Under the pieces are notes generated by a model that ran no database searches, was not told where the DNA came from, and was given only the letters and a program-made list of their open reading frames with translations. The position numbers and the translations under genes were made by a program. This document shows positions 4,485-32,285 of a stretch of DNA of 64,000 nt, piece by piece. The stretch is taken from the NCBI RefSeq assembly GCF_988242995.1, contig NZ_OZ547043.1. One strand, written 5' to 3'. Numbering within the stretch: the first letter of the stretch is position 1; each line of letters starts with the position of its first letter.

Positions 4485-4494
4485 AATAAACCTC

Positions 4495-5728: not shown

Positions 5729-5774
5729 ACCGCCTTTGAAAACAATCCGCTATGCTTTGAAAAAGGAGAAAGAA

Positions 5775-6140: not shown

Positions 6141-6289
6141 TTAACCCCCCACAAATAAATTAAACATGAGATTCTACTCATTGTGTTTTATTTCTCACAT
6201 TGATGACGACCGCATGAAAGAATGATATTTTAATGAGCATTCTGAAAAAATATCGATGCATTTCGAGCGAAGATGGTGAGGATCCCTGA

Positions 6290-6808: not shown

Positions 6809-8024
6809 CGATAATTCTCTTAATAAGCGCCCCACGTTTAAAAGAGCATTACGCAACATCAGTATGACCAGCATATTTATCACTATGATGCTGATCTGGT
6901 TGCTGCTTTCCGTGACCTCGGTGCTGACCCTGAAACAGTACGCGCAAAAAAACCTGGCACTGACAGCAGCAACAATGACTTACAGTCTGGAAGCAGCGGT
7001 CGTTTTTGCCGATGGCTCTGCAGCAACTGAAACACTGGCAGCGCTGGGGCAGCAAGGCCAATTTTCAACTGCAGAAGTGCGTGATAAGCAGCAAAATATT
7101 CTGGCATCCTGGCATTACACCCGTAAGGATCCAGGCGATACTTTCAGTAATTTCATAAGCCACTGGCTCTTCCCTGCCCCCATCGTTCAGCCGATTCGTC
7201 ACAATGGTGAAACCATTGGCGAAGTTCGCTTAACCGCTCGCGACAGTTCAATCAGCCATTTCATCTGGTTTTCGCTCGCTGTCCTGACCGCCTGCATTCT
7301 GCTGGCATCAGGCATCGCAATTACCCTCACCCGCCATTTGCACAATGGTCTGGTTGAAGCGTTAAAAAACATCACCGATGTCGTACATGATGTGCGTTCC
7401 AACCGCAATTTTTCCCGACGAGTTTCGGAAGAACGTATCGCAGAGTTTCACCGCTTCGCTCTCGACTTCAACAGTCTGCTGGATGAAATGGAAGAGTGGC
7501 AGCTTCGTTTACAGGCCAAAAATGCGCAGCTTCTGCGTACCGCGCTACATGACCCATTAACCGGGCTGGCTAACCGCGCAGCGTTTCGTAGCGGTATCAA
7601 TACGTTGATGAACAATTCCGATGCCCGAAAAACGTCGGCGTTACTATTTCTTGATGGCGATAATTTCAAATATATCAATGATACCTGGGGTCATGCGACG
7701 GGCGATCGTGTCTTGATTGAGGTAGCAAAACGGTTAGCTGAATTTGGCGGGCTGCGACATAAAGCATACCGCCTGGGCGGCGATGAATTCGCGATGGTGC
7801 TCTATGATGTACAGTCGGAATCTGAAGTGCAGCAGATATGCTCAGCACTGACACAAATCTTTAATCTCCCGTTTGATCTTCATAATGGCCATCAGACCAC
7901 CATGACATTAAGCATTGGTTACGCGATGACCATTGAGCACGCCTCTGCGGAAAAATTACAAGAGCTTGCCGATCACAATATGTATCAGGCCAAACACCAG
8001 CGTGCCGAAAAGCTGGTGAGATAA
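6798..8024 (+). CDS. dgcN: Membrane diguanylate cyclase (GGDEF)
   Basis: 408 aa ORF, two TM segments, GGDEF motif [10 protein letters not shown]; overlaps yfiR stop. Confidence 0.9.
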
Positions 8025-8039
8025 CAAGGATATATCGAT

Positions 8040-8522
8040 ATGATAAAGCACCTGGTAGCACCCCTGATTTTCACCTCACTAATACTGACTGGCTGCCAGT
8101 CCCCTCAGGGAAAGTTTACTCCTGAGCAAGTCGCCGCTATGCAATCTTATGGATTTACTGAATCCGCCGGCGACTGGTCGCTGGGCTTATCAGATGCCAT
8201 TCTGTTCGCAAAAAATGACTACAAATTGCTCCCGGAAAGCCAGCAACAGATCCAAACCATGGCAGCCAAATTGGCCTCGACAGGGCTAACACATGCCCGT
8301 ATGGATGGACACACCGATAACTATGGTGAAGACAGTTACAACGAAGGCTTATCATTGAAACGGGCGAATGTCGTGGCCGATGCATGGGCTATTGGTGGAC
8401 AAATTCCACGCAGCAATCTCACCACACAGGGTTTAGGAAAAAAATATCCCATAGCCAGTAACAAGACCGCCCAGGGCCGCGCCGAGAACCGCCGCGTCGC
8501 AGTGGTGATTACAACCCCTTAA
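8040..8522 (+). CDS. yfiB: OmpA-family outer membrane lipoprotein YfiB
   Basis: 160 aa ORF, lipobox LTGC, OmpA-like C-terminus (NRRV). Confidence 0.9.
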   Translation: MIKHLVAPLIFTSLILTGCQSPQGKFTPEQVAAMQSYGFTESAGDWSLGLSDAILFAKNDYKLLPESQQQIQTMAAKLASTGLTHARMDGHTDNYGEDSYNEGLSLKRANVVADAWAIGGQIPRSNLTTQGLGKKYPIASNKTAQGRAENRRVAVVITTP

Positions 8523-8540
8523 AACACGAGCAAACAGATA

Positions 8541-8570
8541 AAAAAGGGCCAGCCAATTGGCCAGCCCTTC
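8541..8570 (-). terminator. Probable terminator downstream of rplS
   Basis: Palindromic GC stem (aagggc...gccctt around gccaattggc) flanked by an A-run, which is a U-run on the minus strand. Confidence 0.5.
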
Positions 8571-8597
8571 TTAACAGGATGTCGCTTAAGCGAAACC

Positions 8598-8948
<351 letters not shown>

Positions 8949-8986
8949 TTAATCTCTTATCCTGGGTAAACTGATATCTCGGGGGC

Positions 8987-9754
8987 TTACGCCATCCCAT
9001 CATGTTTATGTTGCTGTTGTGCGTGTTCCGTTTTGAACTCCGCCAGCAACCTTGCTTGCTCTTCAGTCAGAGCCAGGTTTTCCAGAAGTTCAGGTCTTCT
9101 AAGCCAGGTACGGCCCAGCGACTGTTTCAAACGCCAGCGACGTATCTCGGCATGGTTGCCCGACAGTAACACTGGCGGAACTTCCATCCCTTCTAACACC
9201 TCAGGCCGCGTATAGTGCGGGCAATCCAGCAATCCTTCAGCAAAGGAATCTTCCGTTGCTGAGGCTTCATGTCCCAGTACTCCCGGAATAAACCGGGAAA
9301 CGGAGTCAATCAGCGTCATTGCTGGTAACTCACCACCACTGAGAACGTAATCGCCGATTGACCATTCTTCGTCAATTTCGGTTTGGATCACGCGCTCATC
9401 TATACCTTCGTAGCGACCGCACACCAGAATCAATTTTTGATTCGTTGCCAGTTCGCTGACGCCCGCTTGATCAAGCTTGCGTCCCTGTGGTGACAGATAA
9501 ATCACCTTTGCGCCTTCACCCGCCGCGGCTTTTGCTGCATGAATGGCGTCCCGCAAGGGTTGCACCATCATTAACATCCCCGGTCCGCCGCCGTAAGGAC
9601 GATCGTCCACGGTACGGTGCCGGTCATGCGTGAAGTCGCGAGGACTCCAGCTCTGGATGCTCAGCAGGCCATTTTTAACTGCCCGGCCAGTTACCCCGTA
9701 ATCGGTAATTGCGCGGAACATTTCAGGAAACAGGCTAATTATGCCAATCCACAT
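8987..9754 (-). CDS. trmD: tRNA (guanine37-N1)-methyltransferase
   Basis: 255 aa ORF; recalled TrmD; operon position. Confidence 0.97.
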
Positions 9755-9784
9755 AGCGCCGTCTTTTACCGTTTATCCGGTGGT

Positions 9785-10333
9785 TTAAAAACCAGGATCC
9801 CAATCTACTTCGATTGAACGAGTAGTGAGATCGACTTTCTTGATAACCTGCCCATCGAGGAACGGTACGAGACGTTCCTTGATACCAAACGCATCTTTCA
9901 GGTTTGCCTTAATGACGAGAACATCATTAGATCCGGTTTCCATCATATCGACGACTTTACCGAGATCGTAGCCTTCAGTGGTTACTACCTGGCAGCCCAT
10001 CAGGTCTTTCCAGTAGTAGTCACCCTCTTCAAGCTGAGGCAGCTGCGATGAATCCACGACAATTTCACAATTCGTCAGCAGGTTCGCCGCATCACGATCG
10101 TCAACGCCTTTCAGCTTGATGATCATGTCCTGATTGTGGTGCTTCCAGCTTTCCAGCTGGACTTGCTGCCACTGACCCGCCTTCTGGATAAACCAGGGCT
10201 GATAGTCAAAAATGCTTTCGGCGTCTTCGGTGGAAGAAAACACTCTGAGCCACCCACGAATACCGTAAGACGAACCCATTTTTCCCAAAACGATGGGATC
10301 AACAGGTGCTTGCGCGGTGAGTTGTTTGCTCAT
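9785..10333 (-). CDS. rimM: Ribosome maturation factor RimM
   Basis: Start chosen at [13 protein letters not shown] (182 aa); ORF track begins 3 codons upstream. Confidence 0.92.
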
Positions 10334-10351
10334 CATGACCACCGTGACAGA

Positions 10352-10678
<327 letters not shown>

Positions 10679-10848
10679 TTACTCATTTTTGCGGAAATTG
10701 CAATCAGCAGTTGCTAACTCTGCTGTAAAAGGCCGTCGGCGGTGCAGCCAGTTTGGTGCCGGAGTGCGCGCAGTCACCGGAGCGTACACGCAGTACGTGA
10801 GGATGACGAGCACACCCCGGTGCCAAAATGGCAAACAAGCCAGGCCGA

Positions 10849-12210
10849 TTAGCGACCAGGAAATCCCGGCGGCATCATACCCTTCATGCTTCTCATCATC
10901 TTCGCCATTCCGCCCTTCTTCATTTTCTTCATCATGCGCTGCATGTCGTCGAACTGTTTCAGAAGACGGTTAACGTCCTGTACCTGCATCCCGCAACCGG
11001 CGGCGATACGACGCTTACGTGAACCTTTGATGATTTCTGGCTTAGCGCGCTCTTTCATCGTCATTGAGTTGATGATGGCTTCCATACGCACCAGCACTTT
11101 ATCGTCCATCTGCGACTTGACGTTATCCGGGATCTGCCCCATGCCCGGCAGCTTGCCCATCAGGCTAGCCATGCCGCCCATATTTTTCATCTGGCGCAGC
11201 TGCTCAAGAAAGTCGTTGAGATCGAAGCCGTCGCCTTTTTTCAGCTTGCTGGCTAATTTCTCTGCCTGCGCGCGGTCAACTTTGCTTTCGATATCTTCGA
11301 TCAGTGACAGTACGTCGCCCATGCCGAGAATACGCGACGCGATGCGGTCAGGATGGAACGGCTCCAGCGCCTCAGTTTTCTCGCCAACACCGAGGAACTT
11401 GATCGGTTTGCCAGTGATGTGACGAATAGAGAGCGCCGCACCGCCGCGGGCATCGCCGTCCACTTTGGTCAACACTACGCCGGTAAGCGGTAACGCTTCA
11501 TTGAATGCTTTTGCCGTATTGGCCGCATCCTGACCGGTCATGGCGTCAACCACAAACAGGGTTTCAACCGGATTAATCGACGCATGGACTTGTTTGATCT
11601 CATCCATCATCGCTTCGTCAACGTGCAGACGACCAGCGGTATCCACCAGCAGCACGTCGTAGAATTTCAGTTTGGCTTCTTTCAGCGCCGCGTTAACGAT
11701 ATCTACCGGCTTCTGACCAACATCAGAAGGGAAGAAATCAACGCCCACCTGCTCTGCCAGCGTCTCAAGCTGTTTGATTGCCGCCGGGCGATAAACGTCG
11801 GCGGAAACCACCAGCACTTTCTTCTTGTGCTTCTCGCGCAGGAACTTACCGAGTTTACCAACGCTGGTTGTTTTACCGGCACCTTGCAGGCCCGCCATCA
11901 GCACGACCGCAGGCGGTTGCGCAGCCAGGTTCAGGGTCTGGTTCTCTTCGCCCATCGCCGCAACCAGTTCGTTACGGACGATTTTGACGAACTCCTGCCC
12001 CGGCGTCAGGCTCTTATTAACTTCATGACCAACCGCTTTCTCTTTTACGCGATTGATAAACTCACGCACTACCGGCAGAGCGACATCCGCCTCCAGCAGC
12101 GCCATGCGCACTTCGCGCAGCGTATCTTTTACGTTGTCTTCAGTGAGGCGTCCACGGCCACTGATATTGCGCAGCGTGCGCGACAAACGATCGGTTAAAT
12201 TATCAAACAT
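10849..12210 (-). CDS. ffh: Signal recognition particle protein Ffh
   Basis: 453 aa ORF; GTPase motifs GLQGAGKTT and DTAGR; Met-rich C-terminal M domain. Confidence 0.97.
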   Translation of the reverse strand: MFDNLTDRLSRTLRNISGRGRLTEDNVKDTLREVRMALLEADVALPVVREFINRVKEKAVGHEVNKSLTPGQEFVKIVRNELVAAMGEENQTLNLAAQPPAVVLMAGLQGAGKTTSVGKLGKFLREKHKKKVLVVSADVYRPAAIKQLETLAEQVGVDFFPSDVGQKPVDIVNAALKEAKLKFYDVLLVDTAGRLHVDEAMMDEIKQVHASINPVETLFVVDAMTGQDAANTAKAFNEALPLTGVVLTKVDGDARGGAALSIRHITGKPIKFLGVGEKTEALEPFHPDRIASRILGMGDVLSLIEDIESKVDRAQAEKLASKLKKGDGFDLNDFLEQLRQMKNMGGMASLMGKLPGMGQIPDNVKSQMDDKVLVRMEAIINSMTMKERAKPEIIKGSRKRRIAAGCGMQVQDVNRLLKQFDDMQRMMKKMKKGGMAKMMRSMKGMMPPGFPGR

Positions 12211-20369: not shown

Positions 20370-20402
20370 CTTGCTCTTCCGGATACGTCCGGAGAAATCC
20401 TG

Positions 20403-20437
20403 AAAGCCCGCATGGCGCAAGCCCTGTGGGCTTTTTT
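20403..20437 (+). terminator. Probable ssrA terminator
   Basis: aaagccc…gggcttt inverted repeat followed by T-run just 3' of ssrA. Confidence 0.5.
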
Positions 20438-20480
20438 GTGTCTACCGTTGTCCGAGGATATCCAGCTGAGTCCAGTGATT

Positions 20481-20534
20481 ATTGGTATACGTTTAGGTAT
20501 ACGGTAAGATGTATACCTAAATGCGTATACCAAT
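20481..20534. repeat. Imperfect 54-bp palindrome of GGTATACGTTTAGGTATAC motifs upstream of int (candidate Int arm-type / operator sites)
   Basis: attggtatacgtttaggtatac … gtatacctaaatgcgtataccaat; same motif recurs at 32027-32049 near attR. Confidence 0.55.
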
Positions 20535-20553
20535 TCATGAAGGAACGGCCAAA

Positions 20554-21753
20554 GTGGCAAGAACGACACGTCCCCTGACCAACACTGAAGTTCTGCGCGC
20601 TAAAGCGTTAGAAAAGGATCTAACGTTGCATGATGGCGATGGCCTTTTTCTGCTCGTTAAAACGAACGGTAAGAAATTATGGCGTTTCCGCTACCAAAAG
20701 CCAGTAACAAAACAGCGGACCATGATTAGTTTAGGAACCTTCCCTGCACTATCCTTGGCTGAAATCAGAAATGTGCGAGCTAAGTATCTTTCCTTGTTAG
20801 CCAAGGGGATCGATCCACAAACACACAATGAACAAGTCACACAACAACAACAAATTGCAGTAGAAAGTATTTTTTCAAACGTTGCTAAAAATTGGTTTGC
20901 CATTAAACGCAATAGCGTTACACCTGATTATGCAAAGGATATATGGCGATCCTTAGAGAAGGACATTTTCCCTGCTATCGGAGAGATTCCTGTTCAGGAA
21001 ATAAAAGCACGTATATTAATTGAAGCCCTAGAACCAATTAAGGCCCGCGGTGCACTCGAGACTGTTCGTCGTTTGGTGCAACGTATTAACGAAATTATGA
21101 TCTACGCTGTCAATACCGGATTAATTGAGGCTAATCCTGCGTCAGGTATTGGCATGGCTTTTGATAAACCCAAAAAGCAAAATTTGCCAACGCTGCGGCC
21201 AGAAGAATTACCTAAACTGATGCATTCTCTAGTAATGTCAAACCTGTCTATTCCTACTCGTTGTCTGATCGAATGGCAACTACTGACACTCGTTCGCCCT
21301 TCAGAAGCCTCTGGCGCCCGCTGGGATGAGATCGATTTAGAATCCAAACTTTGGAGAATTCCTGCTGAAAGGATGAAAGCAAAGCGCGAACATATAGTTC
21401 CTTTATCATCTCAAGCTTTAATTATTCTTGAAGTAATGAAACCCATAAGTGCTCATCGTGAACATATATTTCCTAGCAGGAATAACCCTCAAGAACCGAT
21501 GAATAGCCAAACAGCAAATGCAGCATTAAAACGCATAGGGTACGGAGGAAAGTTAGTTGCACATGGACTCCGTTCTATTGCCAGCACTGCATTAAATGAA
21601 GCCGAATTTAATTCTGACATTATTGAATCAGCTCTTGCACATGTTGATAAAAATGAGGTGAGAAGAGCATATAACCGCTCCACTTATCTTGATAAACGTA
21701 AAGAGATGATGGCTTGGTGGGGAAATTTTATATATAAAAATAATTCATTATAA
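20554..21753 (+). CDS. int: Tyrosine recombinase, P4-type integrase
   Basis: Start chosen at GTG after aggaa RBS giving 399 aa (…ARTTRPLTNTEVLRAKA…), typical of P4-family integrases; ORF track starts at 20521; C-terminal catalytic region (HGLRS…, …Y). Confidence 0.88.
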   Translation: MARTTRPLTNTEVLRAKALEKDLTLHDGDGLFLLVKTNGKKLWRFRYQKPVTKQRTMISLGTFPALSLAEIRNVRAKYLSLLAKGIDPQTHNEQVTQQQQIAVESIFSNVAKNWFAIKRNSVTPDYAKDIWRSLEKDIFPAIGEIPVQEIKARILIEALEPIKARGALETVRRLVQRINEIMIYAVNTGLIEANPASGIGMAFDKPKKQNLPTLRPEELPKLMHSLVMSNLSIPTRCLIEWQLLTLVRPSEASGARWDEIDLESKLWRIPAERMKAKREHIVPLSSQALIILEVMKPISAHREHIFPSRNNPQEPMNSQTANAALKRIGYGGKLVAHGLRSIASTALNEAEFNSDIIESALAHVDKNEVRRAYNRSTYLDKRKEMMAWWGNFIYKNNSL

Positions 21754-21764
21754 AAGGTATTACA

Positions 21765-22799
21765 ATGAATATTGATTCTATAAAACTTCATTTACAAAAT
21801 TTTTTCACAAATAATCCAACTGTTCTTATCGGTTCTGGCCTCTCTCTCGGTGAGGGGATTCCAGGTATGAAAACATTGGGAGAACATCTTAATACAACTA
21901 TCCCCAAATTAGTAAGCGGGGATCTTATAAGAGAATGGGGTATCATAAGTTCCAAACTAAATAATGGTATGGGACTTGAAGATGCCATGGCATTTCTTAA
22001 AGATGAAAGTGAACTTATCCCATTAATTATTCAGCACACCGCAGATCTTATTTTAAAGCATGAAAATACTGTAATATGCTCTGTAATCAATGGAGAAAAA
22101 AATCTAGCATTTACATCTTTATTGAATCACTTAACTTTTAATCAAAATGAATTGATAATTATAACTCCAAACTATGATAGACTAATTGAAATAGCATGTG
22201 AAATTGCTGGTCTAGAAATTTCAACAGGATTTATCAATAGTTATCATTGTATAAATAATCCTGAAGTTGAGTTAGATAAATTCAAAATCACCCACTCTAT
22301 CAAAACCACACGAGGTAAATCTACAGTTCAAATTAGAACTAAAAAACACGTTAAAATATTTAAACCTCATGGTAGTCTTGATTGGTTCAAGGCTGACGAT
22401 AAAATTATCAGGACCAGCTTTCAAAATAAACATAAAAGATTAATTATTACACCAGGTACAAGTAAATTCAGAGCTGGATATCAGCAGCCTTTTGATTGGC
22501 ATAGAGAAAAAGCAAACCATTATATCAAAAGAGCAAAATCACTATTAATTATTGGCTATGGGTTTAATGATGAGCAGTTAGAAGTACATTTGAAATCAAA
22601 AATACGTGAAAAAATACCTGTTTTATTAATGACATATGAATTGACATCAAACGCTCAAAAAATATGTGATGATAATCCTTCTATAACATATGTTATTGCA
22701 GAAGGAAACAATTCCATCGTTTGTATCGATGGCATTAAATATAAAATCGAAAAGAATATTTGGTCTTTAAATGAGTTTGTTAAAGAGGTACTTAAATAA
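21765..22799 (+). CDS. SIR2-like (NAD-binding/NADase family) protein, putative defence effector
   Basis: 344 aa; Rossmann-like VLIGSGLS, TPNYD and KPHGSL motifs as in SIR2/DUF4020 defence proteins; AT-rich; 11 bp after int stop. Confidence 0.75.
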   Translation: MNIDSIKLHLQNFFTNNPTVLIGSGLSLGEGIPGMKTLGEHLNTTIPKLVSGDLIREWGIISSKLNNGMGLEDAMAFLKDESELIPLIIQHTADLILKHENTVICSVINGEKNLAFTSLLNHLTFNQNELIIITPNYDRLIEIACEIAGLEISTGFINSYHCINNPEVELDKFKITHSIKTTRGKSTVQIRTKKHVKIFKPHGSLDWFKADDKIIRTSFQNKHKRLIITPGTSKFRAGYQQPFDWHREKANHYIKRAKSLLIIGYGFNDEQLEVHLKSKIREKIPVLLMTYELTSNAQKICDDNPSITYVIAEGNNSIVCIDGIKYKIEKNIWSLNEFVKEVLK

Positions 22800-24583
22800 T
22801 GGAATATTACGTCATTAACACTGATGAAACATGCTTTATCGGACGAATCGCAAATGTTGATACCGATCGTGCTATTATCATTTCAGAGTCTCCAGAGATC
22901 ATACAAGAACTAACCGTTTTTGACTTGGTTGCTATTGAAGGCAATACCCCCACAGAGTTTCTTGTTGGTATCATTGAAAAAGTAAAACGCTCTATTGGAG
23001 AAATACAAACTATTGATACTGAAGAAAATATTGAAGATGACAGTGAAAAAGATTTCGATAATATCTTCCAAACTTATTCTATCGATCATGATATTCTTCA
23101 AGTAGCTCTTATCGGCACTTTCTGGGAGGTTTACGGGGATAGAAGGAAAATTTTTAAAAGAGGAGCACAATATTTTCCAAAAGTTGAAAAACAAGCATTT
23201 CTTATAAAAAAAGACAGTCTTGAGAAATTAATGTCGGCAGTCGACAATGATACTCCTGATGAGCTAAAACTCATACTAGGCAACTATGGAAATACCAATT
23301 CACGAGCAGTTGCAAATGGGGATAAATTATTTCAGAGACATGCTGCCCTATTGGGGAGTACTGGTTCAGGTAAAAGTTGGACAGTTGCGTCATTACTAGA
23401 ACAAGCCTCAAAATTAAAATACAACAATATTGTACTTTATGATCTTCATGGTGAATACAAAACTTTATCTGATACACATAATAAATCGAACCGCCCGAGC
23501 ATAGCCGATTATTTTAAAATTGCAAGCCCAGGAAATATCGACGATGTAAATAGTATTTATGTACCTCATTGGTTATTAAACAAAGAAGAAATGCTATCAC
23601 TGTTGTTAGATAGAAGCGATAGCAATGCACCTAATCAGGCAGCAAGATTTAGCTACCACGTGAGAGAGCTAAAAAAAGAATACATCACACACAACAGATT
23701 AATACACTTAGAAGATTGTTTGACTGTTGATGCTCCAATACCCTACTCTATCGAGGATCTTATTAGCAGACTGCACGATGATGATCAAGGTATGAAAAAA
23801 GGTACTAATAATAAAGAAATAAAAGGTGATTGGAATGGAAAACTAACAAGATTCATAAGCAGGTTAAGAACAAAAGTAGACGACAAGAGGAACTGTTTTC
23901 TATTCTCAAATAAACCAGAACACAACCAATATGATTGGTTGGAGAAATACGCTTGTAAAATTTTAAAATCAGATAGCACAGATCATGGCATTAAAATAAT
24001 TGATTTTTCTGAAGTTCCTTCAGATATTATGCCTATTGTTATTGGTGTATTGACCAGATTTTTATACAACGTCCAATTTTGGAGATGTGAGACCGAACGA
24101 ACCCCTATAGCATTCGTTTGTGACGAAGCTCATATTTATTTACCCGCTAAGGATACCACTGAGGCTGAAACAAAAATATCCTTATCAATATTCGAGAAAA
24201 TTGCTAAAGAAGGCAGAAAGTACGGAGTATCTTTATTAGTCGTCAGCCAAAGACCTTCTGATGTTAGCAGAACAATACTAAGTCAATGTAATAACATAAT
24301 TTCTCTCAGACTAAGTAATTATAGAGATCAACAGGTAGTTAGTCGGTTAATGCCTGATTCATTGAGTTCATTAACATCCATACTACCAATTCTTGATACT
24401 GGGGAAGCAATAGTTCTTGGCGACTCTGTTCTATTACCAGCTAGAATAAAATTGAATCCACCAACACTCAAGCCCGATAGCGCAACCAGAGCTTTTTGGA
24501 ATGAGTGGGGGGCAATTGAAGCAAAAGAAATCTCTATAGCAAATGCTGTTGAATCACTCAGGAGACAATCTCGTAATCGCTAA
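22799..24583 (+). CDS. HerA-like P-loop ATPase (FtsK/HerA superfamily), partner of the SIR2 protein
   Basis: 594 aa; Walker A GSTGSGKS, Walker B FVCDEAH; start overlaps SIR2 stop (TAATG). Confidence 0.75.
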   Translation: MEYYVINTDETCFIGRIANVDTDRAIIISESPEIIQELTVFDLVAIEGNTPTEFLVGIIEKVKRSIGEIQTIDTEENIEDDSEKDFDNIFQTYSIDHDILQVALIGTFWEVYGDRRKIFKRGAQYFPKVEKQAFLIKKDSLEKLMSAVDNDTPDELKLILGNYGNTNSRAVANGDKLFQRHAALLGSTGSGKSWTVASLLEQASKLKYNNIVLYDLHGEYKTLSDTHNKSNRPSIADYFKIASPGNIDDVNSIYVPHWLLNKEEMLSLLLDRSDSNAPNQAARFSYHVRELKKEYITHNRLIHLEDCLTVDAPIPYSIEDLISRLHDDDQGMKKGTNNKEIKGDWNGKLTRFISRLRTKVDDKRNCFLFSNKPEHNQYDWLEKYACKILKSDSTDHGIKIIDFSEVPSDIMPIVIGVLTRFLYNVQFWRCETERTPIAFVCDEAHIYLPAKDTTEAETKISLSIFEKIAKEGRKYGVSLLVVSQRPSDVSRTILSQCNNIISLRLSNYRDQQVVSRLMPDSLSSLTSILPILDTGEAIVLGDSVLLPARIKLNPPTLKPDSATRAFWNEWGAIEAKEISIANAVESLRRQSRNR

Positions 24584-24608
24584 TAAAAATATTATCTAGC
24601 AACGCGCA

Positions 24609-24627
24609 GTGCTTTCCCCGCCTCGCC
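24609..24627 (-). other. P2/P4-type cos site (19-nt cohesive end sequence)
   Basis: gtgctttccccgcctcgcc is the exact reverse complement of the recalled P2/P4 cohesive end GGCGAGGCGGGGAAAGCAC. Confidence 0.75.
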
Positions 24628-24727
24628 CGCCCGCTTTGCGGGGCGGTTTCAGTGCAGTTGCACTGACACGCTCAGGCCGCGCCGGGAATGGCGCGGTCTG
24701 CAGAAAATGAGGCAGGAAAACGCATGC

Positions 24728-24762
24728 AAAGCCATGCACCTTATCGATGCATGGCTTTTTTC
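24728..24762 (+). terminator. Rho-independent terminator between cargo operon and psu
   Basis: gccatgca-ccttatcga-tgcatggc hairpin followed by TTTTTT. Confidence 0.6.
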
Positions 24763-24791
24763 AGTAAAAACGGGCGGATTTTCGGGGAATT

Positions 24792-25364
24792 TTACACAGA
24801 CTGATGTGATGCCAGTTGCGCACTTTTACGCGAAAAAATCATGTTCTGCGCAGGAGTGAATTTTTCACGGCTGTCATCCACCGAAGCCGCGTCAGGCCTG
24901 AATCCGATGGTCGTTAAAATGTCGCTATCCTGTGCGGAATAATTAATTTTTTCACCCTTCGCAAGCCAGGACTGGAGGGCTTCACGCAGGGCATCTGTGG
25001 CACGCTGTATGGCACAGTTTCGGGCAATGGCCGTCAGCTCACTGTAGCCCATCAGCTCCGGTGCCAGTGCCGCCGCCAGTGCTGTGCCGTGCTGCTGCAT
25101 AAAATCATTCAGCCGGTCGCGGATGCTGATGTGCTGAACGGCTTCATGCGAACGAATATAACGACCGGCGGCCTGATTCACCTGCCATTTTCTGACTTCG
25201 ATAATATTGCGTAATTCGTCCAGGCGACTGACGTTTCTGCCTTCTCCTGACAGAAGCCGCAGGTATTCCTGTTCGGCCGCTGCCAGCTCATTTTTGCGTT
25301 GCAGCCATGCTGCTTTGTTATTCTGACAGGTGTCAAAGGCCTGCTGTAAGGCTGTGCTTTCCAT
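24792..25364 (-). CDS. psu: Polarity suppression protein Psu (P4-like)
   Basis: 190 aa ORF MESTALQQAFDTCQNNKAAWLQRK…, recalled as P4 Psu; length matches. Confidence 0.85.
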   Translation of the reverse strand: MESTALQQAFDTCQNNKAAWLQRKNELAAAEQEYLRLLSGEGRNVSRLDELRNIIEVRKWQVNQAAGRYIRSHEAVQHISIRDRLNDFMQQHGTALAAALAPELMGYSELTAIARNCAIQRATDALREALQSWLAKGEKINYSAQDSDILTTIGFRPDAASVDDSREKFTPAQNMIFSRKSAQLASHQSV

Positions 25365-25437
25365 CGTTATCTCTTTCTCATCATGCTGAAGAATAAAAAT
25401 ACGGTGTGCGGCGACGGCCGGTGTTAACCGGCAGCCC

Positions 25438-25938
25438 TCATTCCAGACGCAGCGAATATGATTGTGTTTTTAACCGTACTGGCGGCAGTTCCTGTTTTTC
25501 ATGCAGGCGTTCTGCCAGTTCGTCCGGCGTGACCGGGCGGACAATGAAACGGTTGATGGTCTGAAGCGTTTTAAACACCAGACCACAGCCCGGATCCGTG
25601 CACACATAAAAACGCTCGGTGACTTCCTGAGACAGACGCCGCGATGTTCTTGACAGTGCAAGGCCTTTACATCTCCGACAACAATATCCGGTAACAAGCA
25701 TTCTTTTCGGCCGTTTCATACTGCCGGAGGCTGACGTCAGTGAATCGCGGTATCTCTGTTTGCCTGAAATGTATTCCATTCCTGAATCTTTACAGTCAGA
25801 GAAAAAGCTTTCACTCGCTTCAAATGTCGCAGAGCAATAAATATTCCGGCACTGTGCAATCATTATCTTGGTGCCATCGTCCATGAAATGTGCGCGACGG
25901 GTGTGAGCAACATGTCCACACGACGGGCAGTAAATCAT
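25438..25938 (-). CDS. delta: Late-gene transcriptional activator Delta (Ogr/Delta zinc-finger family)
   Basis: 166 aa; CPSCGH…C…C zinc-finger at N-terminus and a second Cys cluster; same size as P4 Delta. Confidence 0.85.
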   Translation of the reverse strand: MIYCPSCGHVAHTRRAHFMDDGTKIMIAQCRNIYCSATFEASESFFSDCKDSGMEYISGKQRYRDSLTSASGSMKRPKRMLVTGYCCRRCKGLALSRTSRRLSQEVTERFYVCTDPGCGLVFKTLQTINRFIVRPVTPDELAERLHEKQELPPVRLKTQSYSLRLE

Positions 25939-26669
25939 GACAGCAGCCCTCTGGCCTTAAGCTCTGCTCCCTGCTGGTCTATTTTGTCCTGCCACACCTT
26001 GCGCTGTGCCGGTGTGCCTGCCACCTCATAATCCATGTGCGGGAGTGTTGCCGCTGACAGTCCGGCCAGCCGGAGAACCGGCTCGCCGGTGAGGCTGATT
26101 TGCATCTGTTTTATTTTCTGTTCCAGCGATGATTTCACCTGCTGCATGACAGCCTTTTCCGGCGCGACGTAGCCCTGATGGCCGGTGGTGTTGGCGAGCG
26201 GATTTTCCTGTACCAGGATGCTCAGATGCATTGCCCGGACAAGCGCCTCACAGGTTTCATTCAGGGCGTGTTCCAGCTCATGCTCTGCATACAGACTCAG
26301 CAGGTGATGATGTGCCTTCCGGTAGGCGGTGGCCGTGCTGTCACACGCCCCTTTCAGGCGTTCACATTCAAAATTCAGCACCACGGCCAGATTGTCATAT
26401 TCCTGTACCAGCTCCCGGCGTGCCACGCGCTCAATGTGGCGCTGTTTCAGCTCATCGCTCAGGACACCACCGGCTGCACGAAAGGCCGTGCGCCAGTCGT
26501 CAGCGTCGTTTCCGTCGGCCTGCGTCAGCGCATTTTTTTCCTGCTCTGCCCGTTCAATGGCCGTGATGGTCTCATCCATCAGGCGGGCGTTCTCAAGATG
26601 AGCGGCTCTGGCCTTTTCCAGTTGTGCCAGCGCGGGTTGCAGATATTCAGGGATGGTGTTGTCAGACAT
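25935..26669 (-). CDS. sid: Capsid size determination protein Sid (P4-like)
   Basis: Start chosen at MSDNTIPEYLQPALAQLEKAR (244 aa); ORF track extends 22 codons upstream; overlaps delta start. Confidence 0.8.
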   Translation of the reverse strand: MSDNTIPEYLQPALAQLEKARAAHLENARLMDETITAIERAEQEKNALTQADGNDADDWRTAFRAAGGVLSDELKQRHIERVARRELVQEYDNLAVVLNFECERLKGACDSTATAYRKAHHHLLSLYAEHELEHALNETCEALVRAMHLSILVQENPLANTTGHQGYVAPEKAVMQQVKSSLEQKIKQMQISLTGEPVLRLAGLSAATLPHMDYEVAGTPAQRKVWQDKIDQQGAELKARGLLS

Positions 26670-26703
26670 TTTCCGGCTCCTCGTCACTTCAGGTTGAGAA
26701 AAT

Positions 26704-26759
26704 TGTGACGTACACCGGACAACAACACGACGCATTGCAGATGTGCCAGCCCTGACACA
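26704..26759 (-). promoter_or_regulatory. Candidate Psid late promoter with two TGT-N12-ACA Delta/Ogr-type dyads
   Basis: tgt-gacgtacaccgg-aca (26704-26721) and tgt-gccagccctgac-aca (26742-26759), centres 38 bp apart, immediately upstream of sid. Confidence 0.6.
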
Positions 26760-26838
26760 GGAGACTCATCCTCAGACCGGCAAGCCAGGAAAAGGTCGCA
26801 GGAAAAACCGGCTTACTGTTTGTTTTTTTATATTTTAC

Positions 26839-26942
26839 TGTTCACCTCTGTTCACCTTAAGAAAAAAGATAAGTAATACAGTAAGTTAAAGGATGAACAA
26901 TCGCAGTAATGACTGTTCACCGTCTGTTCACCACTGTTCACC
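26839..26942. repeat. Cluster of five direct TGTTCACC octamers (P4 ori-like alpha-binding iterons)
   Basis: tgttcacc at 26839, 26849, 26914, 26925, 26935; same octamer recurs in repeats downstream of alpha. Confidence 0.7.
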
Positions 26943-27101
26943 CGCTCATGGACTTTTTGTGCTGTTTACTACTGTTTGTTTTTATTAATTCGCCGGGAAT
27001 GAATAAGAAGAAACGATTTGTATTTCACTATAAAAATTACGAATTGCTTTAAGTGGCTTTAAATGACTTTAAGTGGAGATGAACAAAAAATACACAAGCA
27101 T

Positions 27102-27119
27102 TGTAAGGCTGCCGGAACA
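27102..27119 (+). promoter_or_regulatory. Candidate Delta-dependent leftward-operon promoter element (TGT-N12-ACA)
   Basis: tgt-aaggctgccgga-aca upstream of the AlpA/Vis-like gene; an imperfect second dyad follows. Confidence 0.35.
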
Positions 27120-27221
27120 AATCCCCCCTGTTGCGTCTGCCGAAAATATTCACAAAATAAAGCGCTACCCGAAGCCGGACGGACTTATCCGGTGCTGTAT
27201 GGACATTAACGAGGTAGCCCG

Positions 27222-27488
27222 ATGCAATCTGTTTTTTCTTCCCCGTCTCCCGCCCCAGTGACGCCACTGATGCCGCTGCCGGACATCACGCAGGAGCGTT
27301 TTTTACGTCTGCCGGAAGTGATGCACCTGTGCGGCCTGTCACGCTCGACCATCTATGAACTTATCCGTAAGGGGGAATTTCCGCCGCAGGTGAGTCTTGG
27401 CGGTAAAAATGTGGCCTGGCTGCACTCTGAAGTCACCGCATGGATGGCCGGGCGCATTGCCGGACGCAAACGGGGGTACGACGCATGA
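27222..27488 (+). CDS. AlpA/Vis-family small DNA-binding protein (excisionase/regulator)
   Basis: …[52 protein letters not shown] is AlpA-like HTH; a later start at Met-17 (27270) is possible. Confidence 0.75.
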
Positions 27489-27886
27489 TGATGCCCGCTC
27501 TGCAAAAAGTCCCTTTTTCTGGCTTGCCTTTTTCCGGCATTTGCGGATATAGTTTTTCCGCTGCCGCAAAATCGGCAGCCGGGCGTGGAAACCCGAGTAT
27601 GTTATCGGCGACATATGACGCGCCATGCGTCTTTTTTTGTGTCGCAATCAACGCCACAGAGCGCCAGATTATGGTGTGGTGTGTGGTCAGTCGAGCAAAT
27701 GGCACTCCGTGCATTCTGCCCGCGTCCGCTCATTATACCGCAGAGTCAATGGTAGCTCAGGCGGGGCAGCCTCCGCGCTGGCCGGTTTCCGATAACGCCG
27801 GTATTTCCACCCCCGTCTGGGCTATCGCCATCGAGCGTGGAAACTCCGGCGATAGCGTCATTTACGCTGTTATCGGAGGTTGCCTT

Positions 27887-28084
27887 ATGGCTACGACCCT
27901 TATCCCCTCACACCCTGAATTTGTCTTTGTGTTTGCGGCTGTCCGTCGCGCAGACCGTCATCCCCGTATCTGTATGCTTCGCACCGTCGCCGGTGATGAA
28001 CGCAGCGCCCGCCGTTCCCTTGTCCGTGACTATGTGCTCTCCCTTGCTGCCCGTCTGCCGGTGGTGGAGGTGTCCCGTGCGTAA
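27887..28084 (+). CDS. Small hypothetical protein (65 aa) in satellite left operon
   Basis: ATG 7 nt after GGAGG; lies within long frame 27440-28084; overlaps next gene start. Confidence 0.35.
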
Positions 28085-28364
28085 TAAAAAAGCCCCTCAG
28101 ACCGTCTCAGCACGTCATGACGCCCGTGAACACCTCAGCATTGAGGCTTACCATAAGCTCAACCGCGCCAGCGCCGTATCCCAGTTTGTTGGGGGTGATT
28201 TGATTCACCGTGAACTCTCCGGCCTGCATCAGCTCTACATTCCGCATATTTTCAGCTACCTGAATGAAGATATTGATTTTGTGCTGAATGAGCTGAAAGC
28301 CAAAGGCCTGTGCCGCGATTTTCTCGCCCAGCAGAAAGACCGGGGAGACAGGACGCATGTTTGA
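28077..28364 (+). CDS. Hypothetical 95-aa protein, candidate P4 epsilon-like (anti-repressor) by position and size
   Basis: GTG start after ggagg; 95 aa, same size as P4 epsilon and directly upstream of a 151-aa ORF; sequence identity not verified. Confidence 0.4.
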
Positions 28365-28812
28365 TTTTCCCCAGCCCGGTGAGATTTACCGTTCTGCCGG
28401 TTTTCCCGATGTGGCCGTGGTCGGCATTCTGGAAGACGGTATTCCGTGGGAAATGCCGTACCGCTGCCCGGACATTGTCTGGAACCCGTACCGCCGTAAA
28501 TTCAGTATCCTTGTGCGTATCCTCGCTGACGGGCGCACCACAGACATCCCGCTGGGGCGTTTTCTGCGGGAATTTACCTGTGACCGTCCTGACCTGTTTA
28601 AACGCAGCCCCGTAAACCGGCATGCGGTACTGAAAGAAATGGCCGGAGACCCGGAATTACAGAAATGGCGGGAGAAATATCTGGATATTTACCCGCAGGA
28701 CCCTGTTCCGGTCAGCCGGGCGGCACCGGTGGCGCGGGAATGGCGGGAAATTCCCCGCACGGAGCCTGACCCGGAAACCACCCCGGATAACAGTTACCGC
28801 AATTATCTGTAA
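28357..28812 (+). CDS. Hypothetical protein, P4 orf151-like
   Basis: 151 aa ORF, start overlaps preceding stop (ATGTTTGA); position and length match P4 orf151. Confidence 0.55.
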   Translation: MFDFPQPGEIYRSAGFPDVAVVGILEDGIPWEMPYRCPDIVWNPYRRKFSILVRILADGRTTDIPLGRFLREFTCDRPDLFKRSPVNRHAVLKEMAGDPELQKWREKYLDIYPQDPVPVSRAAPVAREWREIPRTEPDPETTPDNSYRNYL

Positions 28813-28947
28813 TTAAAAAACGACACCCGAAAAATTAAATGTGCGTATTCGCGCAGGGATACGCACGTCTTCAGGAGACGCAGATATGCCTTATCAGTTA
28901 ATGCAACCGGCACGGAATGCAGTCATCTGTCACAGGGAGGAAAACAA

Positions 28948-29268
28948 ATGAAAACACCCTTACCGCCCGTCTTACGCGCTGCCCTTTACCGTCGCGCTGT
29001 CGCCTGTGCCTGGCTGACCGTGTGCGAACGTCAGCACCGCTACCCGCATCTCACCCTTGAGTCACTGGAGGCGGCCATCGCCGCTGAGCTGGAAGGCTTT
29101 TATCTGCGCCAGCACGGTGAGGAAAAAGGGCGTCAGATAGCCTGTGCCCTGCTGGAAGATTTAATGGAATCCGGCCCCCTGAAGGCCGCGCCGTCGCTGT
29201 CCTTTCTCGGGCTGGTTGTGATGGATGAACTCTGTGCCCGTCACATAAAAGCGCCGGTACTGCACTGA
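28948..29268 (+). CDS. Hypothetical 106-aa protein, candidate Cnr-like copy-number regulator
   Basis: 106 aa ORF immediately upstream of alpha, as for P4 cnr; assignment by position and size only. Confidence 0.4.
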
Positions 29269-29282
29269 AGGAGAACAACACC

Positions 29283-31616
29283 ATGAAAATGAACGTAACC
29301 GCCACCGTCAGCCATGCGCTCGGCCACTGGCCGCGTATTCTCCCGGCGCTGGGGATTCAGGTGCTGAAGAACCATCATCAGCCCTGTCCGGTCTGTGGCG
29401 GGAGTGACCGCTTCCGTTTTGATGACAGGGAGGGGCGCGGCACCTGGTACTGCAATCAGTGTGGTGCCGGTGACGGCCTGAAACTGGTTGAAAAGGTGTT
29501 TGGTGTCTCCCCGTCCGACGCGGCCGCAAAGGTGGCTGCCGTGACCGGCAGTCTGCCCCCGGCTGACCCGGCAGTGACGGCTGCCGCCGTTGCTGAAACA
29601 GACGCTGCCCGGAAGAACGCCGCCGCACTGGTACAAACCCTGATGGCAAAAACCCGTCCCGGAACCGGTAACGCCTACCTGACCCGCAAGGGCTTTCCCG
29701 GCCGGGAATGCCGGATGCTGACCGGCACACACAGAGCCGGTGGCGTGAGCTGGCGCGCCGGTGACCTTGTGGTGCCACTGTATGACGACAGCGGCGAACT
29801 GGTTAACCTTCAGTTAATCAGTGCTGACGGCCGTAAGCGCACCCTGAAAGGCGGACAGGTCAGGGGCACCTGTCACACCCTTGAAGGACAGAATCAGGCC
29901 GGAAAACGTCTGTGGATAGCGGAGGGATACGCGACCGCACTTACCGTGCATCACCTGACCGGTGAAACGGTGATGGTGGCGCTTTCTTCCGTGAATCTCC
30001 TTTCTCTGGCCAGCCTTGCCCGGCAGAAGCATCCGGCCTGTCAGATTGTCCTTGCTGCTGACCGTGACCTCAGCGGTGACGGCCAGAAAAAAGCCGCCGC
30101 AGCCGCAGATGCGTGTGAAGGTGTTGTTGCCCTGCCGCCGGTCTTCGGTGACTGGAATGATGCCTTCACGCAGTACGGCGGGGAAGCCACCCGTAAGGCC
30201 ATTTATGATGCCATCCGGCCACCGGCTGAAAGCCCGTTCGACACCATGAGCGAAGCGGAGTTTTCCGCCATGAGTACCAGCGAAAAGGCCATGCGTATCT
30301 ATGAGCATTACGGCGAGGCGCTCGCGGTCGATGCCAACGGCCAGCTTCTGTCCCGCTATGAAAATGGTGTCTGGAAGGTGCTGCCGCCACAGGACTTTGC
30401 CCGGGATGTGGCCGGGCTGTTTCAGCGTCTGCGAGCGCCGTTCTCCTCCGGGAAGGTGGCCTCCGTGGTGGACACCCTGAAGCTGATTATTCCGCAGCAG
30501 GAAGCCCCCTCCCGCCGCCTGATTGGCTTTCGTAACGGCGTGCTCGACACGCAGAACGGCACGTTCCACCCGCACAGTCCGTCACACTGGATGCGCACCC
30601 TGTGCGATGTGGATTTCACCCCGCCGGTGGACGGTGAAACGCTGGAAACCCACGCCCCCGCCTTCTGGCGCTGGCTTGACCGTGCCGCCGGTGGCCGTGC
30701 GGAAAAACGCGACGTGATTCTGGCTGCACTGTTTATGGTGCTGGCAAACCGCTACGACTGGCAGCTCTTTCTGGAGGTGACCGGTCCCGGCGGCAGCGGC
30801 AAAAGTATCATGGCCGAAATCGCCACCCTGCTGGCCGGGGAGGATAACGCCACGTCGGCCACCATCGAGACGCTGGAATCCCCGCGTGAACGTGCCGCGT
30901 TAACTGGCTTCTCACTGATACGCCTGCCGGATCAGGAAAAATGGAGCGGCGACGGTGCCGGACTCAAGGCCATCACCGGCGGCGATGCGGTGTCCGTTGA
31001 CCCGAAATACCGGGATGCGTACTCCACGCACATCCCGGCGGTGATTCTGGCCGTGAACAATAACCCGATGCGCTTCACCGACCGCAGCGGCGGCGTGTCA
31101 CGCCGGCGGGTGATTATTCACTTCCCGGAACAGATAGCCCCGCAGGAGCGCGACCCGCAGCTTAAGGACAAAATCACCCGCGAGCTGGCGGTCATCGTGC
31201 GTCACCTGATGCAGAAGTTCAGCGACCCGATGCTCGCCCGGTCACTGCTTCAGTCCCAGCAGAACTCAGACGAGGCACTGAACATCAAACGGGATGCCGA
31301 CCCGACGTTTGATTTTATCGGCTATCTGGAAACCCTGCCGCAGACCAGCGGCATGTATATGGGGAACGCCAGTATCATCCCGCGTAATTACCGTAAATAC
31401 CTCTATCACGCCTATCTGGCCTACATGGAGGCAAACGGCTACCGGAATGTACTCAGTCTGAAAATGTTCGGACTGGGGCTGCCGGTGATGCTGAAAGAAT
31501 ACGGGCTGAATTACGAGAAGCGCCATACCAAACAGGGGATACAGACCAACCTGACGCTGAAAGAAGAAAGCTACGGCGACTGGCTGCCAAAATGTGACGA
31601 CCCTGCAACAGCCTGA
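29283..31616 (+). CDS. alpha: Alpha primase-helicase replication protein (P4-like)
   Basis: 777 aa, same length as P4 alpha; zinc-binding primase motif CPVCGGSDRFRF…YCNQCG; Walker A GPGGSGKS. Confidence 0.9.
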   Translation: MKMNVTATVSHALGHWPRILPALGIQVLKNHHQPCPVCGGSDRFRFDDREGRGTWYCNQCGAGDGLKLVEKVFGVSPSDAAAKVAAVTGSLPPADPAVTAAAVAETDAARKNAAALVQTLMAKTRPGTGNAYLTRKGFPGRECRMLTGTHRAGGVSWRAGDLVVPLYDDSGELVNLQLISADGRKRTLKGGQVRGTCHTLEGQNQAGKRLWIAEGYATALTVHHLTGETVMVALSSVNLLSLASLARQKHPACQIVLAADRDLSGDGQKKAAAAADACEGVVALPPVFGDWNDAFTQYGGEATRKAIYDAIRPPAESPFDTMSEAEFSAMSTSEKAMRIYEHYGEALAVDANGQLLSRYENGVWKVLPPQDFARDVAGLFQRLRAPFSSGKVASVVDTLKLIIPQQEAPSRRLIGFRNGVLDTQNGTFHPHSPSHWMRTLCDVDFTPPVDGETLETHAPAFWRWLDRAAGGRAEKRDVILAALFMVLANRYDWQLFLEVTGPGGSGKSIMAEIATLLAGEDNATSATIETLESPRERAALTGFSLIRLPDQEKWSGDGAGLKAITGGDAVSVDPKYRDAYSTHIPAVILAVNNNPMRFTDRSGGVSRRRVIIHFPEQIAPQERDPQLKDKITRELAVIVRHLMQKFSDPMLARSLLQSQQNSDEALNIKRDADPTFDFIGYLETLPQTSGMYMGNASIIPRNYRKYLYHAYLAYMEANGYRNVLSLKMFGLGLPVMLKEYGLNYEKRHTKQGIQTNLTLKEESYGDWLPKCDDPATA

Positions 31617-31623
31617 CCCACCT

Positions 31624-31648
31624 GACCGGCATCTGCCGGTCTTTTTTT
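31624..31648 (+). terminator. Rho-independent terminator after alpha
   Basis: gaccggca/tgccggtc stem followed by TTTTTTT. Confidence 0.6.
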
Positions 31649-31666
31649 ATCCCTGAATCCCCCGAA

Positions 31667-31962
31667 GGTGAACAATCCAGTGTTCACCCTTCACCGTATA
31701 TTCACCCGTTATCACACTGAAATTAAAAGAGAAAAACGAAAGGTGAACAGTGTGAACAATCAAATCAAAAAAAACTTTTTTTCTTCCTGTGTGATTTTCA
31801 GCACGGGAAATTAATCCCCTGCACAAGTCACACCGGCAGAATGCCGGAGGTGAAGAATCGAATGTTCACCCTTCACCCATTATTCACCACCTATCACTCT
31901 GAAATAAAAGGAGAAAACAGAAAGGTGAACAGTGTGAACAGTTCTTTCGAAAAAAAATTTTT
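31667..31962. repeat. crr-like region: two ~115-bp direct repeats carrying TGTTCACC / GGTGAACA iterons
   Basis: Repeat units at ~31667-31790 and ~31849-31962 (ggtgaa.aatc..atgttcacccttcacc…aaaggtgaacagtgtgaaca…aaaaaa.ttttttt), period ~182 bp. Confidence 0.75.
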
Positions 31963-32026
31963 TTCCTGTACGATATAGCATCAATCCAAGTAAAAATGCG
32001 CTTTCATTTCACATTAACTTACAGCC

Positions 32027-32049
32027 ATTGGTATACGATTAGGTATACG
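32027..32049. repeat. Distal copy of GGTATACG(A/T)TTAGGTATACG motif near attR
   Basis: attggtatacgattaggtatacg, direct repeat of 20481-20503. Confidence 0.55.
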
Positions 32050-32106
32050 CACAAAAAATGAATTAAACAAAATCATTAAAAATCAAAGCAATACAATATT
32101 TATTCA

Positions 32107-32124
32107 AACTCCGCCAGCTCCACC
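32107..32124 (+). repeat. attR: imperfect direct repeat of ssrA 3' end
   Basis: actccgccagctccacca versus ssrA end actcccgccagctccacca (20351-20369). Confidence 0.75.
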
Positions 32125-32285
32125 AATCATGATTGAACGGTGCAAGGACAACACCAACAAAAACAGGAAGTTATAAGTCTCAGCAAGACACCGACCAGAC
32201 GGTGAGGAGACAAAAAAGGATACGCAAAGGAGCCGCGGCTCCTGGTGATATGAAAGCCCACAGATGTGGGCTTTTTCGTTGATGG

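Follow-up and report, generated by a model that had tools for sequence, protein, structure and literature searches.

A probable Type A P4-like satellite at ssrA combining a P4 core with an IntA-lineage integrase, SIR2-HerA genes and a non-P4 RNA immunity cassette

In the 64,000-nucleotide (nt) stretch of contig NZ_OZ547043.1 (NCBI RefSeq assembly GCF_988242995.1) analysed here, hereafter called the window, an element of 11,756 bp begins right after ssrA, the gene for transfer-messenger RNA (tmRNA), and is closed by a repeat of the tmRNA 3′ end. The locus raises the question of whether this element is a complete satellite of the phage P4 type, a domesticated island with the build of one, or two separate pieces lying side by side. 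We consider it very probable that it is a complete Type A P4-like satellite made of four modules, namely a P4 core, an integrase and attachment (att) module of the IntA lineage, a SIR2-HerA defence cargo, and an immunity cassette that is not that of P4.

The P4 core occupied 7.36 kb and ran from cos through psu, delta, sid, ori, vis, the immunity region, epsilon, orf151, cnr and alpha to crr (Table 1). Positions 24603-31963 of the window aligned with P4 (NC_001609) 25..1/11624..4291, crossing cos, with 97.96% nucleotide identity over 7,339 aligned positions. The 7,362 columns of this alignment held 153 differences, and the indels were four, each of a single base. Megablast against phage records matched 24628-31963 to P4 11624-4291 at 98.0%, and local alignment extended the match through cos to P4 position 25. 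Nine P4 proteins aligned end to end and without gaps, showing identities of 87.7-100% (87.7% for the ‘cI ORF137’ frame). The iterons annotated in ori and crr of P4 were identical in 18 of 19 cases, and the 552-nt sid-vis intergenic region, which holds ori and the divergent late promoters, carried 14 substitutions. The promoter and terminator scan placed the PLE promoter, the leader terminator and the alpha terminator at positions equivalent to those of P4. The 64-67 nt flanking cos also matched P2-family cos regions at 86-92%, so that the site combined a cohesive end identical to that of P4 with P2-family-like flanks, as expected for a substrate of a P2-family terminase.

All seven components that define a Type A P4-like satellite (de Sousa & Rocha, PMC8628076) were found at full length and co-localised: int, psu, delta, sid, alpA/vis, epsilon and alpha. 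Their order was the canonical int - (hotspot, cos) - psu - delta - sid - alpA - epsilon - alpha, on the chromosome and within about 10-13 kb. An earlier note on this DNA had read the gene order from int to crr and had matched to P4 the ORF lengths of psu (190), delta (166), sid (244), orf151 (151) and alpha (777); the order was correct throughout and so was every length. The alignment to P4 and P4-like genomes that the note had called for confirmed the genes as members of the P4 family. Unmentioned there was the immunity region, which is present and separates vis from epsilon. A decayed, cryptic remnant was considered as an overall reading and rejected, as every open reading frame (ORF) and every cis site was intact. 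Because sid, psu, delta and epsilon are near-identical to those of P4, we infer on good grounds that a P2-like helper phage would mobilise the element.

P4 and the element were thus alike in gene order, ORF lengths, the cos end, the iterons bar one, and the layout of promoters and terminators. The differences lay elsewhere. Positions 26-4290 of P4 (NC_001609/X51522), with gop, beta, cII, int and attP, had no counterpart in the element. The int/attP of P4 is specific for leuX, whereas the element carried an IntA-like ssrA module and SIR2-HerA instead. In the immunity region, seqA, seqB and seqC of P4 differed from those of the element in both sub-elements.

The limits of the element were given by the att repeats. 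The original 3′ end of ssrA (TTCAACTCCCGCCAGCTCCACCA, 20347-20369) recurred at 32103-32125 as TTCAAACTCCGCCAGCTCCACCA, and the att-to-att spacing (repeat family D9) set the element length. The repeat was 23 nt long with two offsetting single-base indels, and its last 15 nt (CCGCCAGCTCCACCA) were exact and ungapped. The 14-mer CGCCAGCTCCACCA had exactly two copies in the window, at the ssrA end and at attR, and none inside the element; the chance expectation was 0.38 matches at ≤2 mismatches. ARAGORN, Rfam and repeat D9 agreed with the earlier proposal that an intact tmRNA gene and a degenerate copy of its 3′ end bracket an element of ~11.7 kb. The right limit had been set one base short, at 32124, the last base of the right repeat being 32125, and the degenerate copy, though real, had been taken for 17-18 nt.

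A 23-nt arm-type repeat (ATTGGTATACGNTTAGGTATACG) lay just inside both ends of the element, with an inverted pair beside int. Six of the 10 copies of GGTATAC in the window fell at the two element ends, and a 21-nt arm pattern occurred twice, compared with 0.02 expected occurrences. With the tmRNA 3′ duplication at its flanks and putative arm repeats inside both ends, the element had the form of an ssrA-type integrase element. The integrase itself scored 596 bits against NF007246 (PRK09692; cutoff 434 bits) and was 60% and 35.6% identical to IntA of the K-12 element CP4-57 and to P4 Int, respectively. Its catalytic residues R248, H337, R340, H363 and Y373 were invariant relative to IntA and P4 Int, and the Pfam domains Arm-DNA-bind_3, Phage_int_M and Phage_integrase were present on an identical protein. 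The GTG start at 20554 matched the integrase annotation in the relative EC21GDE043, a complete Escherichia coli genome.

It could be supposed that two elements adjoin here, an ssrA islet made of int and SIR2-HerA and, beside it, a P4 remnant without an integrase, brought there by insertion or recombination. Composition and homology do break sharply and exactly at cos (24603), and the int-cargo block is near-identical to that of EC21GDE043 while parts of the core are ~5% different. However, the 14-mer search of the window found no internal att copy, and an arm-type repeat stands at both outer ends, enclosing the full 11.76 kb. In addition, P4-like elements canonically have the layout int-hotspot-cos-psu (PMC8628076, PMC9122126), and the total size fits the packaging size of P4. 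We hold such a juxtaposition to be very improbable. A tandem or composite island was rejected for the absence of an internal att copy and because the arm repeats span the whole element.

At the same site K-12 carries CP4-57, which had been described as unrelated in the earlier note. This holds for cargo and core, which are indeed unrelated, but not for the integrases, given their identity. CP4-57 shares with the element the att site (last 15 nt of ssrA), a similar ssrA terminator at the left end, and a chromosomal attR remnant by ypjA. The post-tmRNA sequence carried by the element (20370-20441) resembled the left end of CP4-57, with K-12 homology running to 20440. CP4-57 differs in its size of 22 kb, in lacking psu, delta, sid, epsilon, alpha and cos, and in its arm sequences. 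Excision of CP4-57 carries an attR deletion (delta-T357) into ssrA and inactivates tmRNA (PMC10107115). The attR reads CGCCAGC-CCACCA in K-12 (locus L002, 23964-23986), one T short, and CGCCAGC-----CA in EC21GDE043 (locus L003, ~14745-14765), five bases short. In the window the attR core was intact (CGCCAGCTCCACCA in the copy at 32103-32125), and because of this, excision should leave a normal ssrA, provided that the crossover falls where that of IntA does. The predicted empty attB would have ssrA joined directly to ATCATGATTGAACGG, and the predicted junction of the attP circle would join 32049..32125 to 20370..20481.

Between int and cos, the hotspot held two genes whose products PADLOC assigned at full length to SIR2-HerA (Table 1). 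The start codon of HerA overlapped the stop codon of SIR2, forming a two-gene operon. The SIR2 motifs TPNYD and KPHGS were present, as were Walker A (GSTGSGKS) and Walker B (AFVCDEAH) in HerA, and the GC content of the cargo was 30-37% compared with 50-64% in the core. In the NCBIfam equivalog test the two proteins reached 38 bits (SIR2_antiphage, cutoff 500) and 289 bits (HerA_antiphage, cutoff 850), respectively, and a PDB search returned the solved SIR2-HerA complexes only as distant relatives of both. Because the scores lie below the NCBIfam cutoffs and the solved relatives are distant, the cargo is, as judged from its sequence, a divergent SIR2-HerA subtype. It would presumably protect the host through depletion of nicotinamide adenine dinucleotide (NAD+) and abortive infection. 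SIR2+HerA is among the defence systems of the P4-like psu-int hotspot beside cos (Rousset et al. 2022, PMC9122126).

P4-like satellites occur in ~44% of E. coli isolates (PMC9122126), and for the defence satellites among them the same architecture, the cos-side hotspot, the SIR2+HerA class and integrase exchange have been described (Rousset et al., PMC9122126; de Sousa & Rocha, PMC8628076). Of 5426 complete E. coli genomes, 2364 matched the element at least in part, and only EC21GDE043 covered it in full, at 98.6%. The integrase allele was present at ≥99% in one genome, EC21GDE043, and 376 genomes had an ssrA-type integrase with 78-80% nucleotide identity. The SIR2-HerA cassette had a nucleotide match in EC21GDE043 only. 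One public read-set assembly contained an identical HerA, likewise in this ssrA context, and the next relatives of HerA were in Pantoea, Dickeya and Rahnella (78-86%). In IMG/VR, the P4 core (98-100% protein identity) was paired with at least three integrase families, and the SIR2-HerA cargo of the element was in none of these IMG/VR loci.

The element and its relative in EC21GDE043 were nearly identical in the int-cargo-psu-delta block. There were 174 differences in total, 76 of which fell in 26500-27999 (ori-immunity) and 32 in 31500-31999 (crr). Such a pattern would be expected from recombination among related satellites. Alpha binds to both ori and crr, and the two seem to have been exchanged as a pair.

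An alternative to a mobile satellite is a domesticated, immobile island of P4-like build that has lost excision or packaging, for instance if the exchanged int/att fails with a P4-type Vis. The host would then retain it for defence by SIR2-HerA and because it provides ssrA with a 3′ end and a terminator. In favour of this are CP4-57, a cryptic element of the same site that rarely excises (PMC10107115), and the truncated attR, given above, of the closest relative in EC21GDE043. The attR of the element is itself degenerate to the left of its 15-nt exact core, and its P4-type Vis stands beside an Int (36% identical to P4 Int) and att arms of non-P4 type. These last two points weigh against a complete, functional satellite, as do the single substitution in one ori iteron, the position of the cargo below the equivalog cutoffs with only distant solved relatives, and the result that a P2-like helper was absent from the 64-kb window, the rest of which is colinear with K-12. 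The weakest link of the mechanism, and a further point on this side, is that P4-type Vis is assumed to work with a non-P4 Int and its arms; we assume it only because the same core occurs with at least three integrase families. On the other side, decay would predict something other than what was found, that is, all genes and cis sites intact and 98-100% identical to those of a functional satellite. At either end the arm-type repeats are preserved intact, and the attR core is perfect. That mobility is ongoing is implied by the occurrence of the same core, at ~99% protein identity, next to several integrase families. Domestication is therefore regarded as improbable, and the complete Type A satellite is the reading that we carry forward.

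The differences from P4 were unevenly distributed, 35 of the 153 falling in 27600-27999. In P4, the IsrK-like RNA is seqA and the C4-like RNA is CI, and CI pairs with seqA and seqC to give premature termination (PMC4825925, PMC3632133). Rfam detected the corresponding RNAs in the window, all above gathering: isrK at 27560-27637 (74.7 bits), c4-a1b1 at 27547-27599 (51.5 bits) and C4 at 27745-27832 (70.4 bits, gathering 45). Our assignments of seqA, seqB and seqC rest on these models, on complementarity and on the two secondary citations just given. Element a of seqC overlapped the Shine-Dalgarno sequence of a 65-codon kil-like ORF (27887-28084; phrog_6928), and the enclosing ORF is named ‘Icd-like’ by PGAP in relatives. 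Compared with P4, changes were found at four of the eight positions of element a and at two of the seven positions of element b (Table 1), and the predicted specificity is not that of P4.

Covariation was tested in alignment A1 (11 loci) over 15 proposed seqA-seqB pairs. Standard pairs made up 99.3% of the cells, and in 9 of the 15 pairs both partners had changed. In 500 shuffles neither the observed pairing nor the observed covariation score was ever attained, and in the slid controls, with the partner moved by 1-3 columns, pairing was 40-52%. The seqB-seqC pairing was analysed by exact-complement search; MAFFT placed seqC one column off in A1. In every A1 case seqC held the exact complement, and the targets in the window showed exact complements of 7-9 nt. 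Predicted duplex energies were about −20 kcal/mol for cognate pairs, compared with −5.4 kcal/mol for the CI RNA of the window on P4 seqA and −6.9 kcal/mol for the reverse combination. Because both immunity elements and the four target sites change compensatorily, the element is predicted to be heteroimmune, repressing itself and neither repressing P4 nor being repressed by it. Neutral drift as the origin of the divergence was rejected in view of the compensatory changes at three sites and the discrete allele classes.

The 361-nt immunity region was found in the complete E. coli genomes at ≥99% in 95, at 95-99% in one and at 90-95% in 650. A pattern scan of IMG/VR gave 48 further P4-like loci, and over 59 loci the immunity elements showed at least seven alleles of a, at least three of b and at least 13 combinations. 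The combination in the window, CCGATAAC as a and TTTCCAC as b, recurred in three IMG/VR loci. The two elements assorted independently, four a alleles each being found with two or three b alleles (A1, L015-L062). Swapping one element needs matched changes at three sites, which are interleaved as A-b, A-a, B-a, B-b, C-b, C-a. It is an evenly balanced proposition that P4-like satellites carry a two-part combinatorial RNA ‘immunity code’, in which each allele would be mirrored at seqA and seqC and the element in the window would represent one type.

The C4/CI immunity of P1, P7, P4 and phiR73 has the same Rfam C4 fold, two single-stranded elements, and an upstream and a downstream target, the downstream one covering the ribosome-binding site. 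Specificity in these systems is set by complementary changes, as is predicted here, where the a/b combination is one of at least 13. Sabbattini et al. in 1996 and Citron and Schuster in 1990 reportedly described such complementary changes between P4 and phiR73 and between P1 and P7. No population-scale account of such immunity types was found in the literature searched.

Some loci showed pairings of another kind. In L016 (IMGVR_UViG_2698536560_000011, ~8580-8950), seqA was TCTAACGG/GTGAGAA, and the CI RNA and seqC were of the other type, CCTGTGAA/TTTCCAC; its sequence suggests a recombinant locus whose upstream target is non-cognate. In two further IMG/VR loci (L045 and L054) the CI loop element CCTATGAC had no complement at seqA or seqC, and immunity there may have decayed or may pair in some other way. 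L015 and L044 showed immunity pairing through G-U.

The mechanism proposed for the element consists of steps that are known for P4 and are transferred by analogy. The int/att module would target the last 15 nt of ssrA, not leuX, and would supply the displaced tmRNA 3′ end and terminator, and SIR2-HerA would occupy the psu-int hotspot where P4 has gop-beta-cII. In the integrated state, transcripts from PLE would yield the CI RNA, processed from the leader. By pairing with seqA and seqC, this RNA would block kil translation and end transcription before epsilon, orf151, cnr and alpha, and SIR2-HerA expressed from the hotspot would defend the cell. Infection by a P2-type helper, or its induction, would lead to activation of the late promoters. 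Epsilon would derepress the helper prophage, Delta would activate the late genes, and Alpha would replicate the element from ori and crr, with cnr in the replication module. Int and Vis would excise the element. Sid would then divert the helper capsid protein to small shells, Psu would stabilise them, and the helper terminase would cut cos and package the 11.76-kb genome.

Table 1. Features of the element and of its ssrA site, in window coordinates; for the immunity elements the P4 sequences are given alongside.
Feature	Positions	Strand	Remarks
ssrA (tmRNA), intact	20007-20369	+	ARAGORN; Rfam RF00023, 295.8 bits; tag ANDENYALAA
attL core, 15 nt	20355-20369	+	CCGCCAGCTCCACCA, 3′ end of ssrA
Post-tmRNA sequence carried by the element	20370-20441	+	ssrA terminator hairpin 20419-20433 and T-run (terminator scan)
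Putative arm-type integrase sites, int side	20481-20531		Four GGTATAC half-sites, two direct and two inverted; overlap the region just 5′ of int
Tyrosine integrase, 399 aa	20554-21753	+	Likely GTG start; ORF open from ATG 20521; IntA/PRK09692 type, ssrA-specific
SIR2-family NADase component, 344 aa	21765-22799	+	PADLOC PDLC04082, E=1e-124, full length; GC ~30%
HerA-family ATPase component, 594 aa	22799-24583	+	PADLOC PDLC04105, E=9e-210, full length
cos	24603-24669		19-nt cohesive end 24609-24627 identical to that of P4; left edge of P4 homology (P4 position 25)
psu, 190 aa	24792-25364	-	98.4% to P4 Psu, full length; phrog_6366; capsid decoration protein, Rho antagonist
delta, 166 aa	25438-25938	-	98.2% to P4 Delta; phrog_603; late-promoter transactivator
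sid, 244 aa (within 266-codon ORF)	25935-26669	-	98.0% to P4 Sid; phrog_6165; external scaffold setting small capsid size
ori	26839-27076		Six type-1 iterons (one with 1 substitution) and three type-2 repeats; mapped from P4 annotation
vis/orf88, 88 aa	27222-27488	+	97.7% to P4 orf88; 36% to K-12 AlpA; phrog_2790; AlpA-family excisionase/regulator
PLE promoter	27524-27553	+	Promoter scan
seqA/IsrK-like leader	27524-27637 (with PLE)	+	Terminator 27617-27631; Rfam, terminator scan, alignment A1
seqA element b	27585-27591	+	GTGGAAA; P4 seqA GTGAGAA...TTCACAGG, window GTGGAAA...GTTATCGG
seqA element a	27601-27608	+	GTTATCGG
CI RNA (C4-type antisense immunity RNA)	27745-27832	+	Holds seqB
seqB element a (CI RNA hairpin loop)	27789-27796	+	CCGATAAC; P4 CCTGTGAA
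seqB element b (CI RNA 3′ single strand)	27804-27810	+	TTTCCAC; P4 TTCTCAC
seqC and kil-like ORF	27837-28084	+	P4 seqC GTGAGAA...TTCACAGGA, window GTGGAAA...GTTATCGGA
seqC element b	27837-27843	+	GTGGAAA
seqC element a	27869-27877	+	GTTATCGGA
epsilon, 95 aa	28077-28364	+	98.9% to P4 Epsilon; helper-prophage derepressor
orf151, 151 aa	28357-28812	+	99.3% to P4 ORF151
cnr/orf106, 106 aa	28948-29268	+	100% to P4 ORF106; copy-number regulator
alpha, 777 aa	29283-31616	+	99.2% to P4 Alpha; phrog_2249; primase-helicase, origin-binding protein
t-alpha terminator	31624-31641	+	3′ of alpha; terminator scan
crr	31662-31965		Two ~120-bp direct repeats (D1), ten type-1 iterons all identical to P4; P4 homology ends at 31963
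attR side	31966-32125		Element-specific arm, arm-type repeat 32027-32049 (D7), then tmRNA 3′ copy; exact core 32111-32125

The window was colinear with K-12 2,735,587-2,807,922 at 95-98% identity, the exceptions being the element and a 1.9-kb insertion at 54738-56684. Chromosomal homology to K-12 resumed at 32102, at the attR remnant. Directly right of the element, a 1565-aa ORF (32286-36983, minus strand) was the homologue of the adhesin-like autotransporter gene ypjA, with 94.7% nucleotide identity to K-12, where it has 1526 aa. The right flank of EC21GDE043 differs, and glaH adjoins the element there. At 39941-40016 on the minus strand ARAGORN called a tRNA-Met (CAT), which by position is ileY of K-12; ileY is a tRNA-Ile(CAU) that reads AUA through a modification of its anticodon. 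The genes on either side of the 1.9-kb insertion are ygaM and nrdH. Its 444-aa ORF (54737-56071, minus strand) resembles, by eye, a GntR/MocR-type regulator dependent on pyridoxal phosphate, and the divergent 143-aa ORF (56159-56590) resembles, again by eye, proteins of the AhpD/carboxymuconolactone-decarboxylase kind.

Few mobile elements of E. coli are commoner than P4-like satellites, and integrase swapping and defence hotspots have already been described for them; the element in the window is an uncommon combination of integrase, SIR2-HerA cargo and non-P4 RNA immunity type. The attR variants mean that excision of ssrA elements would affect tmRNA differently among strains, and the intact attR predicts that loss of this element would not stop trans-translation, unlike that of CP4-57 in K-12. 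If the combinatorial immunity code is true, neither the element and P4 nor the element and its closest relative, that of EC21GDE043, would repress each other; the latter two differ in the loop element alone. Several near-identical satellites could then coexist or compete in one cell, and new immunity types would arise by patchy recombination across the six interleaved sites. As a natural chimera with a nearly wild-type P4 core, the element allows tests on a P4 background of whether P4 Vis is compatible with foreign integrases, what the rare SIR2-HerA subtype targets, and how far the two short RNA elements set immunity specificity.

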